A stretch of 64,000 nucleotides of DNA from a virus (Duplodnaviria; Caudoviricetes): IMG/VR virus record IMGVR_UViG_3300027333_000001; one strand, given 5' to 3'. The translations under genes and the position numbers were made by a program. A model generated the notes under the pieces. That model was not told where the DNA came from. It was given only the letters and a program-made list of their open reading frames with translations, and searched no databases. Positions 9,645 to 32,505 of the stretch are shown piece by piece (the first letter of the stretch is position 1; each line of letters begins with the position of its first letter).

Positions 9645-12452
9645 TTAGAACTCAAAACCACCAAATAAAACATCTTTTAATCCATCAGGTGTTTTACTTG
9701 TATCTGTTTCAATTTCTATTTCTTCGTTTGTTGTTAGGTTGAACTCATCCTCATCATAATTGTTTACAAATAATGATGCTGTCTTTTCACTATCACTCGC
9801 ATTAGCTAATCTAATACTTTCTTTCTGATACTTCTTAGGATTGTCTATTCCCATTTGAGATAAACTTGCAATCACAGGTTTATTGTATTTTTGACAAGTA
9901 CCTTCTGCATTCTTAAATACACAAGTTGCACACTTATCCATTTGCAATACAGCAGGTATCATATTTGATCTATGTTGTAATGCACCTTGTTCGCAACCTA
10001 CTTTTTCATAAGCACCTGCATCTACATAGACTTGACCAGATAAACCTTCATGTGCAGTTCTAATAGCTTTAATAGAATCTGCATAGTGATTTAATACTTC
10101 ACTAGCAAATCTTGCTTTAAGCATAATATCCAAATCATTACCGACTGCACCTTCAGCCATCTTTTGTCTTAACCATGTTTCTACTGTATCTTTACTTGCT
10201 AACTTAACACTAGCTTTTTTAGTTTCGATATGCTGTGTATATTGTGTATCTGTATATTCTTTCTTTTGACTTGCACTTAAATGAGTTAAAACTTTTGCTA
10301 ATTTCTTTTGTGGATTTGAAATGCCACCTACTAGATGTTCTAATTCAGATCTGTCTAATAAACCACCTGTAACAATAGAATTTAAAGTAGCCTCAATTTT
10401 ACGATTGACTGCCATCACTTCTTTTTCTTTTTGAAGTAAAGGCATTTCACTTGCTTTCTTTAATCTTAATTCCAATTCCTGTTGAATAGCTTTAAAGTTA
10501 TTATTCGCTTGCTTTAATTTTGATTGTTCCGACCACTGCTGATTGTCATATTCTTTATCAGAAATATTAACACTCGCATCTTTCATAGCTTGGATGTTTT
10601 GCTTTAATCTTGCAGACAGTTCTTTTTGGAAAGCAACAAAATCATTCTTTGCTTCTTTTAATAAGTTTAACTGTTCGTATCTTGTTTCACTATATTCTTT
10701 ATTTGATACATCGGATTGAGATTGTGTAATGAAGTCCAAAGCACTTGAAACTACTTCTTCAGGATTACTACATCCACAAGCTATTTTTTCCATTTGATTT
10801 AAAGTGATTAAACCTGCTTTGATCATGCGACTAACTTTATCTTTTGCTACTCTTGATCTTACTGCCAAATCTCTTTGTTCTGCATTATCATAATGTCCAA
10901 AGTCATTACTATATGATTTGCCTGCCATTGTCTGTGCATTTAAACCACTACCTAAATAATTTCCTGCTTTTGTCATTACAGGTTTAGATGCTAACTTTTT
11001 CAAGTATTGTGTCTTGGTATGAAAATCACCTTTCATACCAACGATTTGATCTACTTGATTTTTTGTTGTCATTCCCAACTTTACTAGCTGTGATGCTAAT
11101 AAAGTAAATTTGTTTTCTTGTGCTTGTATTTCTCTTTGTGCAGGTGTTGTGTAATGTGGATCTATTTCTTGAATGACTTTATTGTGCATTCCTTTTTTAC
11201 CTACACCACCACCTTCATAATCCTGTGCTTGTTTTTGTCTAAGTAAATATTCATTTAACTTAGCTGTCTTTTGCTCCAAACTACTTAATCTTGAAATCTC
11301 TTGATATTGGGATTCATTTAAGAAGTTACTTTTCTTAAAATTCTCTAATAGACCTGCAAACTTATTATTAAGATTATTCAGTTCTCTATCTCTTGTTGTT
11401 CCTACATCTACTGTTTCAGGTACATACTTTGCAAACTTTTCACTTGCCTGTTCGCTTGAATATTTCTTTGTTAAATCTTCTTGATAGGCATACCATGTTT
11501 GTGGCAGTACTTGTGCAGGTGCTTGAGATAAAAATGCTTGCTTTAATCTAGCTTGGTAATTTGTACCACTGCCTAACTTAATACCAACTGTCTTTAATTT
11601 TGGTGCATAATGTTCAAAGGCTGATTTCCAATTGATATTAGAAACTACCTTACGACCTTGATGGTAATCAAATACACAATCCTTTGATGCTGGAATAATG
11701 TATTTTGCACTTGCACACCTTGCTTTAATTTGTTTATCCCATTTGCCATTAAACAAACCTTTAAATGCCTCTTCTCTTATATATACTTTGCCATGTAAAC
11801 CATGATCACTAGCAATACGATTAGCAACATCATCTGTATATTTATTGCCTATGTCTGTTTTCAAATCTGCAAGAATAACTTTTAAAGGCTCACCATAAGC
11901 AGACCTTCTCATTGCTTTTTCTATTTTTTCTCTGTAATCATCACCGGGCTGTTGTGCTTGTGGTGCATCATATTTATTTACTACTTTGACAAATTCTCTA
12001 TTCTTATTTGGTACTAATCCTAAACCATTGGTGCTTTCATCCCACATCTCACTTAATTCTTTTAATGCACTATCTTCATAAAAGCTATTTTCCATCTGTT
12101 CGTAAACATCTTTCTTATTACGAACACCTTCAAGATTAGCTTGTGTTTCCTGTGCTAACCATGAATGATCTACAATAGGTACATATTGAAAAGAACTTTC
12201 TTTTAAGAAATCACCTAAATGGATGCCACCTTCTTCATCTACATGACTAGGTAAAACACTTGATCTAGGTGTATCATTTGGCAAAATGCCACTAGGTAAA
12301 GAAGATAAACCTTTGGCTTCAGGTAGTCTTGCTTTCTCTAATACTCCACCATTATATTCAGTATCGTATTGAAAACCATCGAGCATATAATTTGAGCCAT
12401 TGGTTAAAGTATAACCACCATTAGGTAGATATGAATTAGATTGCTTTTTCAT
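9645..12452 (-). CDS. Large repeat-containing protein, probable virion/head-associated
   Basis: 935 aa; duplicated domain (RIASDHGLHGKVYIREEAF / RTAHEGLSGQVYVDAGAY), four ~55-aa helical repeats, Cys cluster near the C-terminus. Confidence 0.55.
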   Translation of the reverse strand: MKKQSNSYLPNGGYTLTNGSNYMLDGFQYDTEYNGGVLEKARLPEAKGLSSLPSGILPNDTPRSSVLPSHVDEEGGIHLGDFLKESSFQYVPIVDHSWLAQETQANLEGVRNKKDVYEQMENSFYEDSALKELSEMWDESTNGLGLVPNKNREFVKVVNKYDAPQAQQPGDDYREKIEKAMRRSAYGEPLKVILADLKTDIGNKYTDDVANRIASDHGLHGKVYIREEAFKGLFNGKWDKQIKARCASAKYIIPASKDCVFDYHQGRKVVSNINWKSAFEHYAPKLKTVGIKLGSGTNYQARLKQAFLSQAPAQVLPQTWYAYQEDLTKKYSSEQASEKFAKYVPETVDVGTTRDRELNNLNNKFAGLLENFKKSNFLNESQYQEISRLSSLEQKTAKLNEYLLRQKQAQDYEGGGVGKKGMHNKVIQEIDPHYTTPAQREIQAQENKFTLLASQLVKLGMTTKNQVDQIVGMKGDFHTKTQYLKKLASKPVMTKAGNYLGSGLNAQTMAGKSYSNDFGHYDNAEQRDLAVRSRVAKDKVSRMIKAGLITLNQMEKIACGCSNPEEVVSSALDFITQSQSDVSNKEYSETRYEQLNLLKEAKNDFVAFQKELSARLKQNIQAMKDASVNISDKEYDNQQWSEQSKLKQANNNFKAIQQELELRLKKASEMPLLQKEKEVMAVNRKIEATLNSIVTGGLLDRSELEHLVGGISNPQKKLAKVLTHLSASQKKEYTDTQYTQHIETKKASVKLASKDTVETWLRQKMAEGAVGNDLDIMLKARFASEVLNHYADSIKAIRTAHEGLSGQVYVDAGAYEKVGCEQGALQHRSNMIPAVLQMDKCATCVFKNAEGTCQKYNKPVIASLSQMGIDNPKKYQKESIRLANASDSEKTASLFVNNYDEDEFNLTTNEEIEIETDTSKTPDGLKDVLFGGFEF

Positions 12453-16257: not shown

Positions 16258-16602
16258 TTATCGTATAGATATTACACGATTACTTAAATATTCATCTTCT
16301 ACCTGTGCAATAAAATATCCTAGTTCACTTAATGTAAACAAGTTCTTTTCTTTACAGGTATCACTACCTACTTTTACCTTTACTCGCATACCTATTTCTA
16401 GTTCACCTTGATCTTCAAAGGAACACCAACTCACATCTAGTGTGACCATATAACAAACAGCATTTTTCTTAAATGCTTTGCCTATTGGTGAATAAAAGAC
16501 TTCACCTCTATACATAGGTCTTTTGTTATATTCGTTTTCCCAATTTCCCTGCACCTTAAAACCATTTTCTTTTAAATAGTTTTTTACTTCCGTCACTTTC
16601 AT
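16258..16602 (-). CDS. Hypothetical protein (start revised to MKVTEVK)
   Basis: GAAAGGA RBS directly before ATG at 16602. Confidence 0.55.
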   Translation of the reverse strand: MKVTEVKNYLKENGFKVQGNWENEYNKRPMYRGEVFYSPIGKAFKKNAVCYMVTLDVSWCSFEDQGELEIGMRVKVKVGSDTCKEKNLFTLSELGYFIAQVEDEYLSNRVISIR

Positions 16603-16616
16603 AAGAATCCTTTCAA

Positions 16617-16736
16617 AAAGACAATAAAATCCCTTTAAAGATTTTACAACCTTTATTTTAATTATTCTCATGTTTTTACTTTAAACACCAGCTTAAAGAC
16701 AATAAAATCTCTTTTAAGAATTTCCCAACTCTTAAT
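16617..16736 (-). repeat. Imperfect ~40-bp direct repeat pair, each resembling a sigma70-type promoter
   Basis: AAAGACAATAAAATC at 16617 and 16695; minus strand TTGTAA-N17-TATTGT and TTGGGA-N18-TATTGT. Confidence 0.5.
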
Positions 16737-17017
16737 TAAGGTGTCTTTATATGTTTATGTTAGTTTCTGATCCTATATTTACCTTGCACGAAAAGATACC
16801 ATCAACAAGCATTACTTTCCACAGTTGCAGACCAAGTAAACTCTATTCTCTCTTTCAACACTACACGATATGGAAATTAAGACATTACCATTGCCTTTAA
16901 ACAGAGGATCTTATTACCCTTTTAAAGGTCTTTTGTTTCCCCATTGTCCGAAGACGAGGAAACCATCTCTTTTGCATCGTTTCAGATGCGAACACACACT
17001 AAAACCTCTAAAGATTT

Positions 17018-17069
17018 TACTTATACTAGATGTATAAATAGAATATATAGATGTATTATATGTATTGGA
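17018..17069. repeat. 52-bp perfect direct repeat, copy 1
   Basis: TACTTATACTAGATGTATAAATAGAATATATAGATGTATTATATGTATTGGA, identical at 18068-18119. Confidence 0.95.
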
Positions 17070-18022
17070 AGAGATGTTGGAAGCAATAGGAAACACCTTA
17101 ATGGATCTTACCGTCCTAACCCCATGCTCTATATTATTTCAAAGGTAAGCACGGATGGTGTCCTGACATCTATCTAAGTATCATTTTCACTTCCACCTAA
17201 AAAGGATGAAAAAAAGCTACTTTTGAAGTCTTAAACTATGCCTTACAGAATCACTTTAAAAATAAAGTAATCATAACCTAGCACGAGAATAAAGTAAAGT
17301 TCCTAGATACCTGCGATATCTAAAGGTTTTCCCTTATAAGTATTCTTTCTAATCTTAAGCTACCTTTACACCTAAGACTTTATTTACTTGATCGTAACCA
17401 AGCAGAACCTTATCTACAATTAAACCTGTTTTCAGATTTAAAAGCCTTTACCTTATGGATTACTCTTATATTTAAATCTTTCCCTTTTAGCAAATCTTTT
17501 TTTATCTTTTTTTTATCATTCAAAAAAGCCCTTTAAATTTGCTCTTTTCCTTTAAGGTATATGTTCATATAGGAATGACCTTTAAAATCGTCTATAAAGC
17601 ATATTAGATAGGTTTTAGAACATATAGGATTTATTTGCTAGATCGTTTACTTATCCTGCATATAAAAGATAATGGTTTAAAGATTAAAGCAATAAGACCT
17701 TTCTTATCCAGCTATAAAAGTTTATGGTTTACTTATCCTTATATGTTGATAAATCTTATTCTCTTATTCTGATCTTCTATAAATCTTATTCTCTTTCTTA
17801 TCCTGATCTATAAATCTTATCTTTACCTTATATGCTGATAAATCTTATTCTTATTCTCTATATATCCTTATTCTCTTTCTTATTCTTATTCTTATATACT
17901 GATAAATCTTATTCTCTATAAATCTGATCTTTCTTATTCTCTATAAATCTTATCTTTCTTATTCTTTATTCTTATATGCTGATAAATCTTACTGCCTACT
18001 TTATATTATATATTCTTTCTTT

Positions 18023-18043
18023 ATGTTTTGCGAAGCAAAACAT
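18023..18043. other. Hairpin with GCGAAGC core
   Basis: ATGTTTTGC-GAA-GCAAAACAT: 9-bp perfect stem with a GAA loop, between the iteron arms. Confidence 0.8.
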
Positions 18044-18067
18044 CTTCTAACCTAAATCTGTTCTCTG

Positions 18068-18119
18068 TACTTATACTAGATGTATAAATAGAATATATAG
18101 ATGTATTATATGTATTGGA
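18068..18119. repeat. 52-bp perfect direct repeat, copy 2
   Basis: Identical to 17018-17069, 1050 bp downstream; followed by the 16-bp palindrome ATAAGATATATCTTAT (18121-18136). Confidence 0.95.
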
Positions 18120-18699
18120 TATAAGATATATCTTATCTAAAGATAATCTATTATAGATAAGACAGAATAAGAAAAGAAAATCAGAATAGAGATTAGGATC
18201 AGCAGAATAAGATTTATAGAATATATGACAGATCAGAATAAGAAAGAATAAGAGATTAAGATTAAGATTAAGATTTATAGAATAAGATTAAGAATAGAGA
18301 ATAAGAATAGAGAATAAGAATAGAGAATAGAGAATAAGAATAAGATTTATAGATCAGATAAGAAAGAATAGAGAATAAGAGATAAGAATAAGATTTATAG
18401 AGATAAGAGAATAAGACAGATAAGGATAAGAGAATAAGAAAGATCAGAATAAGATTTATAGATTAGGAAATCTTTATAGGATATCAGAATAAGATAGAGA
18501 ATAAGAATAAGAGATTTATAGAGAATAAGAGAATGAGATTTATAGCTAAGAATAAGATAAAGAAGATATGTTTCAAAATAGGTATGTTTTATAGTGTTTT
18601 TTAAAGAGATTACAGGTAAGGATGAGTAAAGACATAGGTTAACCTTTAAAGTGCTTTTAAAGTGCTTTAAAATTGATATTAGAGAATGAGATAGATTTA

Positions 18700-18728
18700 T
18701 TGTTTATTGTAAATCCAAATCTTATAAG
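18700..18728 (+). promoter_or_regulatory. sigma70-like promoter for the clamp-loader genes
   Basis: TTGTTT-N17-TATAAG. Confidence 0.45.
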
Positions 18729-18772
18729 TAGAGATAAGATTTATCAGCCATATAGAAAAAGGATAAACAAAG

Positions 18773-19405
18773 ATGATTATTGTCCATCACGGATTAGGTG
18801 TTTCTAAAGGAATAGAAACCTTTATAGAAGAAAACCAACTTAAACAGGTGAAACCATCTTATGAGAAACTTAATGCAGAAGAAGTAAAGAATTTAGTAGC
18901 AGATTTAAAGATCATCTATCCAGATAAAAATCCTTGTTTAATTGCCGGTCCTTTAGATGAAGCTGATCCATCTAATTTAGATACTCTCTTAAAGATCGTA
19001 GAAGAACCTTTACCTAATACTCCTACTCTTATCCTATGGGCTTATGATTTCGGATCAGTGCCTGCCACTATCAGATCACGATGTGGTGAAAGATATTGGT
19101 TTGCAGTAGAACAAGACCATTCTCTTTTAGATAAAGCTAATGACTTTTTAAATGCCATCTTGATTGATAGGAATTACAGCCAAATTATCTCTTCTCTTAA
19201 AGATATACCTAAAGGTTCTGAAAGATCTTTTATTGATGCCTGTTGTGAATCCATTCTTAAAAATGAATCCTTGCAATATTATCAAGATCGTTTTGTTATC
19301 TATCCTGTCTTTAAACGACACCTAATGAATAAAAGAATATCCAAATTGAGTTTGTATTCTTTAGCTGGTGAACTAATTTCAATAGACCCTTCTAATTTCG
19401 CTTAG
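18773..19405 (+). CDS. holB: DNA polymerase III delta-prime-like clamp-loader subunit
   Basis: DEADPSNLDTLLKIVEEP and SVPATIRSRC (SRC) motifs. Confidence 0.8.
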   Translation: MIIVHHGLGVSKGIETFIEENQLKQVKPSYEKLNAEEVKNLVADLKIIYPDKNPCLIAGPLDEADPSNLDTLLKIVEEPLPNTPTLILWAYDFGSVPATIRSRCGERYWFAVEQDHSLLDKANDFLNAILIDRNYSQIISSLKDIPKGSERSFIDACCESILKNESLQYYQDRFVIYPVFKRHLMNKRISKLSLYSLAGELISIDPSNFA

Positions 19406-19456
19406 GATTGATTTTAAAGACCTTTCCTATATCAACATATACCTAACACAAAAAGA

Positions 19457-20380
19457 GTGCTTAAAATGAGAGTTTTTTTAAATGGTGACTTTGAAGGATA
19501 TAAAAACTTTAAGGTACAGGAAACAAAACAACAAAAAATCTTAGATGGCTATGAGATAAGAATAGCAGATGGAACAGATAAAGATTTAAATGTAGATCGT
19601 TTAACAGAAGTGTCTATGTTTGATCCTAGTCCAATTTTAATAATTTTACAGAATGCACATAAACTAAAAAAAGAAGATTGCTTAAAGGTAGTGGAAAGTG
19701 ATCCAAACATAGAACTGATTTTAATAGGCACAGGTAAATTAAAAGCAGATAAAGGTTTAACAGTACAAACCATAGATACACCAAAAGACTTAAACGAGTG
19801 GTGTGCAGGATTTATTGTAGATGTATTAAAGAAAGAAGGATTGACAATAAAAGAAGATTTAGCCAAAGCTATTGTTTTAAGAATAGGTACAGATGTTGGT
19901 TATCTTTATAGTGAGTGCATGAAATATAAATATGCTTGCCAAACAAAAGAAATCATGCCAAAAGAAGTAGCAGGTGTAATGGCAATTTTAGGTGAAGAAG
20001 ATGGAACTAAAATTATAGATGCTCTTAAAAGTTTAGATGTTCGTGCAGTGGTTAAGAGTATGGATGATTTACAAAGAACAAAAAAAGATGATCCTACAAT
20101 GTCATTCGTAGCTGGCTTATTGACATATAATTTATGTTTATGGTTTGACATAGCTTGTTTATCGCAACAAGGAAAAGATGCTAAAGGAATTGCTGAAAGT
20201 TTAAAGATACATCCCTTTGTAGTAGAAAAATTTCATTTACCTTTTGTGAAGAAAATATCTTTAAAAAAAATAAGTGAACTGATTAAACTAGCAAATGACT
20301 GTGAATATTCCGTGTTGGCGGGGGAAAGAGATGCTTGGACTAGATTGAAGTGTGGAATTATTAAAATTTTGTTTATTTAA
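19457..20380 (+). CDS. holA: DNA polymerase III delta-like clamp-loader subunit
   Basis: SMF clamp-binding-like motif, AKAIVLRIGTDVGYLYSECMKY lid, IHPFVVEK collar; adjacent to holB. Confidence 0.7.
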   Translation: MLKMRVFLNGDFEGYKNFKVQETKQQKILDGYEIRIADGTDKDLNVDRLTEVSMFDPSPILIILQNAHKLKKEDCLKVVESDPNIELILIGTGKLKADKGLTVQTIDTPKDLNEWCAGFIVDVLKKEGLTIKEDLAKAIVLRIGTDVGYLYSECMKYKYACQTKEIMPKEVAGVMAILGEEDGTKIIDALKSLDVRAVVKSMDDLQRTKKDDPTMSFVAGLLTYNLCLWFDIACLSQQGKDAKGIAESLKIHPFVVEKFHLPFVKKISLKKISELIKLANDCEYSVLAGERDAWTRLKCGIIKILFI

Positions 20381-31783: not shown

Positions 31784-32174
31784 ATCCTGTTAATAAAAGT
31801 GGATTGCCAATCAGATCATCTTCTAATCTTTCAGAATAGTCGCTTTGAACTTCAAAATGATCTTTATATTGATACCATTCTGATGATGTTAATAATCTAA
31901 TACCATTTGCACTTGTATTCTTTTCATAATACATACCTGTTTCATTTTTCCATGCTTCGTAGACAGGTTGCAAACCATAAACTTCACTTAGCTTATTACA
32001 AAATAAAAGATATTCAGAATTATCAAGAATGTTATGCACAGGTAGAGTATCTTCTTTATAGATAGAATGATTATGTAAAGTACCGAGAACTTGGATAAAC
32101 AAACCTTGTGTGATTAGTTTTTTTGTAATAATGATATTAGGAAAAGTAATAACTTCTATCATAAAGGAACTCAC
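31761..32174 (-). CDS. Degenerate FGE-sulfatase (C-type lectin fold)-like protein
   Basis: FCNKLSEVYGLQPVY, ANGIRLLTSSEW and terminal GFRV resemble FGE/SUMF1 motifs. Confidence 0.55.
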   Translation of the reverse strand: MSSFMIEVITFPNIIITKKLITQGLFIQVLGTLHNHSIYKEDTLPVHNILDNSEYLLFCNKLSEVYGLQPVYEAWKNETGMYYEKNTSANGIRLLTSSEWYQYKDHFEVQSDYSERLEDDLIGNPLLLTGFRVCQNK

Positions 32175-32175
32175 T

Positions 32176-32505
32176 ATGTTTTCAATGGAAATGGGTCGTC
32201 AAATCCTATTGCTTATCCAACAGGGAAAGACAATTAAAGAAGTAGGCGAGATTTTATCTTTACCTGCTAGAACTATACATAGGCATAAAAAGAAATATCA
32301 AGAACTCACAAATATAGATATGTCTATAGAATATAATCAGCATTTATTTGCATACAAGTTATATCTAGCAGGAATGCCTATGAAAGATATAGCTAGATTT
32401 TTAAACTATAAACGATATAACAATGTTTTGTCTATCATCCAAAAATATAAGAAATCTAAGATCAAAATCGATCTTAAAATTCACACAATAGGAATCATAG
32501 AATGA
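32176..32505 (+). CDS. Tandem helix-turn-helix DNA-binding protein
   Basis: QGKTIKEVGEILSLPARTI and AGMPMKDIARFLNY HTH-like segments; AAAGGA RBS at the revised start. Confidence 0.6.
   Translation: MFSMEMGRQILLLIQQGKTIKEVGEILSLPARTIHRHKKKYQELTNIDMSIEYNQHLFAYKLYLAGMPMKDIARFLNYKRYNNVLSIIQKYKKSKIKIDLKIHTIGIIE

Follow-up and report, generated by a model that had tools for sequence, protein, structure and literature searches.

A candidate bidirectional replication origin between opposed repeat arrays in a freshwater jumbo phage

The gene-free gap and its neighbors

The window, which is the whole 64-kb stretch of DNA analyzed here, comes from an uncultured freshwater jumbo phage whose DNA is present in ~18 river and lake metagenome runs. 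Its largest gene-free gap, 2101 nt long, spans positions 16672-18772, and the runner-up is only 587 nt. The same locus is also the largest non-coding gap in G001, a 316,221-bp IMG/VR genome rated complete, whose delta and delta' are 86% and 88% identical to those of the window. Clamp-loader genes start immediately downstream on the + strand (18773..20380), as an initial annotation of this DNA had stated: a delta'-like gene at 18773-19405 (PF13177, 26.2 bits, just below the 27-bit cut-off) and a delta-like gene at 19457-20380 (PF21694, 34.5 bits), followed by ribonucleotide reductase. A promoter-like TTGTTT-N17-TATAAG for this operon, read by eye rather than with a scan tool, lies at 18700-18728 (+), and its hexamers are kept in G001 with a different spacer sequence.

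The proteins encoded to the left, considered as initiator candidates, gave no lead in Pfam, PHROG, PDB or Atlas and are conserved only in L022, a 278-kb scaffold with a 77% identical delta'. On the same side, a ~39-nt tandem promoter-like repeat (TTGTAA-N17-TATTGT, minus strand) occurs in two copies, 16618-16656 and 16695-16733, and in four copies in L022 (3090-3340). It precedes a 114-aa gene (16258-16602) without assigned function. The G001 counterpart of this gene (314471-314845, L002) has one in-frame TGA, which may reflect a broken gene, a sequencing error or recoding. Elsewhere in the window, DUF4116 repeats are found in four consecutive proteins (1353-7905, +), and a tRNA scan returned no matches.

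We looked for relatives in several ways. In the phage collection searched, blastn with the locus returned no match, the sole tblastn match to delta and delta' was an uncultured 485-kb phage at 23-33% identity, and no cultured relative was present. A delta' profile search of IMG/VR jumbo-phage contigs yielded 32 loci, the largest contigs being 200-435 kb, and the locus was also available on two metagenome contigs, L020 and L021. The initial annotation had asked whether the region is conserved as non-coding DNA, and the answer is divided: a gap precedes delta' in close relatives and in most relatives at 40-47% identity (0.5-1.8 kb, usually with a divergent neighbor gene), but none is present in two relatives at 54-55% identity.

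The left part of the gap holds a structured non-coding RNA of ~700 nt on the minus strand (16757..17458), with approximate ends set from its promoter, a conservation block and an RNA contig. The promoter-like sequence, TTGCTA-N17-TATAAG at 17465..17493 (minus strand, read by eye), has a TTGCAC-N17-TATAAG counterpart in G001 with a different spacer sequence. Positions 16770-17425 are >93% identical to G001, exceeding the conservation of the flanking genes. A minus-strand alignment of five sequences gave 206 pairs, 26 of which keep pairing through changes on both sides. Many invariant G-U pairs in this alignment work on the minus strand only, and L021 has C(UACG)G in place of a C(UUCG)G loop. 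In one freshwater metatranscriptome, a 764-nt contig has precisely the extent of 16667-17430, and the 8 kb around it are otherwise almost uncovered. Words from the RNA stretch were found in 13 metatranscriptome runs from ~10 studies, with contig positions taken from X19 and X20; judged by these contigs and words, the RNA is abundant. Rfam gave no match over the window at the gathering threshold and one irrelevant 17-bit match (E = 2.3) over 16500-18900 when E values up to 5 were allowed, while BLAST of the window RNA against the records of five relatives returned nothing. The RNA may represent a new class of large phage RNA.

Distant relatives have a different structured RNA, ~250-300 nt long, on the delta' strand directly upstream of delta'. 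Its alignment, A4 (L030 4537-4832, L037 4423-4783, L043, L044, L033, L035 and L049), contains 51 predicted pairs, 29 with compensatory changes, and has no Rfam match; nhmmer detected no homology between it and the window RNA. Beside this RNA is a G/T-rich low-complexity stretch (L037 3690-4110; L030 3880-4240) in which the repeat spacings are all multiples of three. The opposite strand of this stretch is an open Thr/Pro/Gln-rich frame of ~110 (L030) to 150 (L037/G005) codons with no obvious start. L037 also has a long near-perfect hairpin at 9701-9801 that scores against several microRNA precursor models and is probably just a strong inverted repeat.

The repeat arrays and the center between them

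The remainder of the gap is dominated by one short repeat. The window has 15 exact matches to ATAAATCTTA, 13 of them inside 17749-18744, and the only two copies outside the locus are at 8864 and 39097. Seven lie on the + strand at 17749-17991, five on the - strand at 18208-18459 and one, also on the - strand, at 18735, in agreement with the ~7 left and 5 right units in opposite orientation that had been reported. With one mismatch allowed there were 50 matches, compared with 29.7 +/- 5.8 in shuffles, none of 100 shuffles reaching 50. The left, C/T-rich arm (17749..17991, +) comprises the seven exact units and one variant; the right, A/G-rich arm (18160..18545, -) comprises the five exact units plus variants in the opposite orientation. 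The unit has a longer form, CTGATAAATCTTAT, and TCTTAT-type hexamers fill the DNA between units in the left arm. A 14-17-nt consensus of the longer unit is common to the window and L022, where the full unit shows more clearly as ATGCTGATAAATCTTAT and its inverse. Averaged over the window, TCTTAT and ATAAGA occur 0.8 and 0.6 times per 500 nt; at the locus their counts rise to 16 and 21, so that these hexamers are 20-30x denser in the arms than in the remainder of the window.

The abrupt purine/pyrimidine switch described earlier is also present. GC skew goes from -0.71 (17800-17949) to +0.94 (18250-18399) and AT skew from -0.38 to +0.42, and the strand running 5'->3' outward from the center is purine-rich in both arms. 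The isolated unit near the right end of the gap is a long one (18734-18756) and sits on the predicted clamp-loader transcript start (feature span with the promoter, 18700..18756), so a unit-binding protein may also regulate that operon.

Compared with the layout of iteron origins, the 13 exact 10-mers within 1 kb form the expected cluster of a 10-22-bp repeat. Regular, helically phased direct repeats were not found at the locus; there are two inverted arrays instead, with irregular unit spacings of 16-84 nt and no consistent helical phase. The arrays had been called mirror images of each other, which holds for their orientation but not for their sequence, the best inverted match between the arms being 59 nt at 78%. 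A large cruciform extruded from the arms, which had also been suggested, is ruled out as implausible because the two arms can pair over no more than 59 nt, with 78-84% complementarity at best. Two further readings were rejected: the arms are not coding, having stops in all frames in a genome that otherwise uses the standard code, and TAGATGTAT is not a conserved binding site, being neither specific to the locus nor retained in L022.

Among close relatives, the common order is pyrimidine-rich arm, central module(s), purine-rich arm and delta'. G001, L021 and L022 have all retained this architecture despite fast change in unit count and filler, with 3 to ~11 units on the left and 2 to ~13 on the right. 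Such variation is what neutral low-complexity DNA, expanded by slippage in a tolerant intergenic gap, would produce. However, slippage does not readily account for the strict strand segregation, for exact units of 10-17 nt or for a polarity that is the same in four genomes despite the turnover. Nor does it account for the related unit that persists at 43% identity: in G005 (290 kb), a sequence with clear similarity to the unit of the window, CTGATAAGTTCT, has three copies in the whole genome, and each of them is at the equivalent locus. We therefore regard neutral expansion as a very improbable origin of the arms.

Between the arms, all of the central elements that had been described are present. 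The first is a hairpin at 18023..18043 with a 9-bp stem and a GAA loop on the + strand (d(GCGAAGC) core). Folded as single-stranded DNA it has an energy of -7.6 kcal/mol (z = -5.0), and it matches the GCGNAGC type of hairpin found in single-strand initiation signals. The arrays had been said to be centered on it, but the midpoint of the innermost units, ~18100, falls inside the neighboring 52-bp element. G001 has an identical hairpin, whereas in L020 and L021 the loop is on the opposite strand and the + strand reads TTC. L022, despite its larger arrays, lacks the hairpin, as do all of the more distant loci. Conservation on a fixed strand was thus not seen among the relatives. Because the loop flips and the hairpin can be missing altogether, we conclude that it is an optional accessory element and not part of the core, and its proposed role as a priming or loading signal is not borne out. 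The sole promoter candidate in the center, TTCGCA-N18-TATAAT on the - strand (18034..18005), loses its -35 hexamer when the loop flips. RNA contigs over the arms were not seen in metatranscriptomes X19 and X20, an observation that carries no weight either way.

The 52-bp element (18068..18119, +) is followed by a 16-bp palindrome, ATAAGATATATCTTAT (18121-18136), made of two unit half-sites placed head-to-head, and by an overlapping 8-bp stem, CTTATCTA/TAGATAAG (18131-38/18155-62). The palindrome and stem together (18121..18162) are kept in four of four close relatives. The central module of 52-bp element and palindrome is doubled in relatives, which have two central copies of the element compared with one in the window. 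Neither the hairpin nor the 52-bp element is found anywhere else in G001, and six of that genome's eight 11-nt units are at the locus.

This part of the gap is also the easiest to melt. By nearest-neighbor energies, no 100-nt duplex of the window is less stable than 18071..18170 (-99.2 vs. -119.2 +/- 5.0, 4 sd below the window mean), and in the 316 kb of G001 the lowest stability is that of its two central modules. In both genomes, then, the least stable duplex lies between the arrays, where an iteron origin would have its adjacent AT-rich unwinding element, and we consider 18071..18170 a candidate DNA-unwinding element.

A second copy of the 52-bp element, identical to the central one, is found inside the RNA gene (17018..17069, +). 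The element is not a general promoter, since in 316 kb it is confined to this locus, where it is also present inside the RNA, and it is unlike the motifs enriched upstream of genes (AAAGGA, GTTGCAAAG and TGTTATAAG); TATAAATA is merely mildly enriched there. Within each of four genomes the RNA-gene copy and the central copies are 98-100% identical, yet the element differs between genomes, with that of L022 being ~80% identical to that of the window. Such concerted copies could result from gene conversion or from selection that keeps the RNA and the origin core identical.

The same pattern raises the possibility that the arrays and center serve the neighboring RNA, as an assembly or docking site or as a decoy of an RNA domain, and that replication does not start here. 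The abundance of the RNA in metatranscriptomes fits this proposal, as does the structured RNA beside low-complexity arrays in distant relatives. However, direct repeats 1 kb apart could acquire the concerted pattern through gene conversion without having any function, and the RNA of the distant relatives has no detectable homology to that of the window. A service to the RNA would also leave the skew switch unexplained, and we find it a doubtful account of the locus.

Repeated protein-binding units are likewise typical of packaging (pac/cos), genome-end and partition (centromere) sites, and the G001 contig breaks inside the locus, its ends overlapping by 20 nt. That break is an overlap in repeated DNA, and other assemblies break at the 52-bp repeats, as is expected for repeats, whereas the window was assembled straight through the locus. 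In addition, G001 has no ParB_N and no convincing ParA match, the neighboring genes are for replication and not packaging, and the terminal repeat of a distant complete genome, G004, is elsewhere. A packaging, terminal or partition site is accordingly extremely unlikely.

Strand composition corrected for gene orientation

Bidirectional GC skew has been found in ~30% of huge phages (PMC7162821). A cumulative skew analysis of the whole genome, proposed in the initial annotation as a check, was run on G001 and gave a minimum at the locus. We judged plain cumulative GC skew unreliable as evidence for an origin, because it tracks gene direction and the locus is a divergent junction, and replaced it with a corrected test. 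The corrected skew is the GC skew at third codon positions, in letters of the + strand, calculated per gene with the effect of gene orientation removed.

The minimum at the locus survived this correction. A two-switch fit to G001 in which origin and terminus could both vary (F = 79) put the origin at the locus itself (0/316 kb, +/-1 kb) and the terminus at 145-148 kb, close to the antipode (158 kb). Forcing the terminus to lie opposite the origin gave a best F of 73.5; across 200 orientation-preserving shuffles the same constrained fit reached at most 35, in a test that takes no account of the similar composition of neighboring genes. The cumulative corrected curve has its minimum at the gene adjoining the locus and its maximum at 147.7 kb. 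In G001 the values for + genes are -0.02 and -0.11 on the left (263-316 kb) and +0.11 and +0.12 on the right (0-53 kb), while those for - genes are -0.31 and -0.34 on the left and -0.18 and -0.03 on the right. Genes of both orientations therefore shift the same way, which excludes a pure effect of transcription direction, and a stronger coding-strand bias in the neighboring operons cannot be the cause. In the window the same shift is seen in both gene orientations, with a broad change-point at 10-19 kb.

Distant genomes were mixed. The corrected skew of G004 has its global minimum exactly at the equivalent gap, G003 and G005 have only a local minimum there, and G006 has none, so that one of four distant genomes has a global minimum at the equivalent site.

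These results bear on the main rival to an origin, which is that the locus does nothing but control divergent transcription, the arms being activator or repressor sites that each face their outward promoter, with no part in initiation. The arrays do lie between two outward promoter-like sites with conserved hexamers, the clamp-loader transcript is predicted to start on a long unit, and opposite orientations would be natural if each array faced its own promoter. However, sigma-70-type control does not usually act from as far upstream of a promoter as the arrays lie (155-500 nt), and regulation leaves unexplained both the orientation-independent skew switch and the presence of the genome's least stable duplex at the center. 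A purely regulatory role seems unlikely to us, and regulation as such is compatible with a role in replication.

Interpretation as a replication origin

Opposed arrays, the most easily melted DNA and the skew flip of a relative together make a two-way origin the most likely function of the locus. From these features of the sequence, we propose that the ~1.2 kb at ~17500-18700 are probably a bidirectional, theta-type replication origin of this jumbo phage. Anatomy, uniqueness, conservation, low duplex stability and the skew switch are direct observations, and four of the features discussed above make an origin probable: the corrected skew minimum of a close relative, a center that melts more easily than any other stretch, units almost confined to the locus, and a position before the clamp-loader operon that is conserved. 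The bidirectional origin suggested by the initial annotation is thus supported in part, by skew, melting, unit uniqueness and position; the role given to its hairpin is not, and searches of G001 for Bac_DnaA and Rep3_N and of the neighboring proteins found no initiator.

How might such an origin fire? A sequence-specific phage protein would bind the many TCTTAT half-sites as well as units of the CTGATAAATCTTAT type; these sites have opposite orientations left and right of the center and converge head-to-head on the 16-bp palindrome. Binding would open the adjacent 52-bp element and palindrome, the least stable duplex of the genome, and the phage's DnaB-like helicase would then be loaded in both directions, together with the clamp loader from the adjoining genes. 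Since the outward strand is purine-rich on both sides, an outward primer or transcript would be expected to form an unusually stable RNA-DNA hybrid.

Some of the proteins that this scheme calls for can be named. G001 encodes a DnaB-like helicase at 209 kb and has no match to Bac_DnaA (PF00308) or Rep3_N (PF01051). Despite its bacterial-type delta and delta' genes, there is no match to DNA polymerase III alpha (PF07733) in the whole G001 genome, so the replicative polymerase must belong to another family. A candidate binder of the units had been put forward in the window, and the gene concerned (32110-32505, +) does encode a small protein with tandem helix-turn-helix motifs (HTH_23, 4.8e-08; the second at residues 80-117).

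Among known systems, the locus appears by analogy to be most like an iteron-type or a dyad-symmetric viral origin. With the iteron theta origins (lambda ori, P1 oriR, pSC101, R6K, RK2 oriV) it shares clustered short repeats, an AT-rich segment for melting, adjoining replication genes and one repeat at a promoter, as in Rep autoregulation. It differs in its two opposed arrays, irregular spacing and purine/pyrimidine-skewed filler, in having no Rep_3 or DnaA-type match (G001) and in its size of ~1.2 kb, which is several times larger. The core origin of SV40 and polyomaviruses, the papillomavirus E1 site and HSV oriS likewise have inverted sites around a palindrome and an AT-rich melting region, a layout that suits head-to-head loading of two helicases, but these origins are 60-150 bp long with 2-4 sites and a known initiator-helicase, whereas many more sites are present here. 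Epstein-Barr virus oriP with the EBER genes offers a similarity of layout only, a repeat array and dyad with an abundant structured RNA gene adjacent; oriP is a maintenance origin for the latent plasmid of a eukaryotic virus and is bound by EBNA1.

Two other groups of origins resemble the locus in part. In ColE1 RNA II, T4 oriF/oriG and the T7 primary origin, replication is primed by a transcript, and the flanking promoters, purine-rich outward strands and adjacent long structured RNA gene of the locus recall them. Unlike in these systems, the RNA gene of the window points away from the arrays, and we found no conserved outward promoter in the center. RSF1010 oriV ssiA/ssiB, the complementary-strand origin of phage G4 and the N4 virion-RNAP promoters share with the locus a d(GCGAAGC)-type mini-hairpin in an origin-like region, and the published background on such hairpins given in the initial annotation is correct (PMC13037366), though the hairpin is not a conserved feature here. 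The ssiA/ssiB, G4 and N4 hairpins are strand-specific and essential, while that of the window changes strand between close relatives and is absent in L022.

The shared 52-bp sequence suggests one further, speculative possibility, to which we give little credence: that the origin core is a DNA copy of the hairpin-coding segment of the RNA, kept by selection, and that the RNA, or a protein reading the shared sequence, marks or primes the origin in trans. An R-loop might arise, for example, if the RecA-like protein of the phage annealed the RNA to the core's top strand. If true, this would be a case of RNA-specified origin firing in a bacteriophage.

To our knowledge, the origin anatomy of huge uncultured phages has not been described previously, and their origins are known as skew patterns only. 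The orientation-corrected third-position skew test used here is applicable to other metagenomic phage genomes. The locus provides a concrete, testable origin candidate for a widespread clade of freshwater jumbo phages, and its confirmation would offer a starting point for replicon construction, a route to the initiator protein and, possibly, an instance of RNA taking part in the choice of origin.
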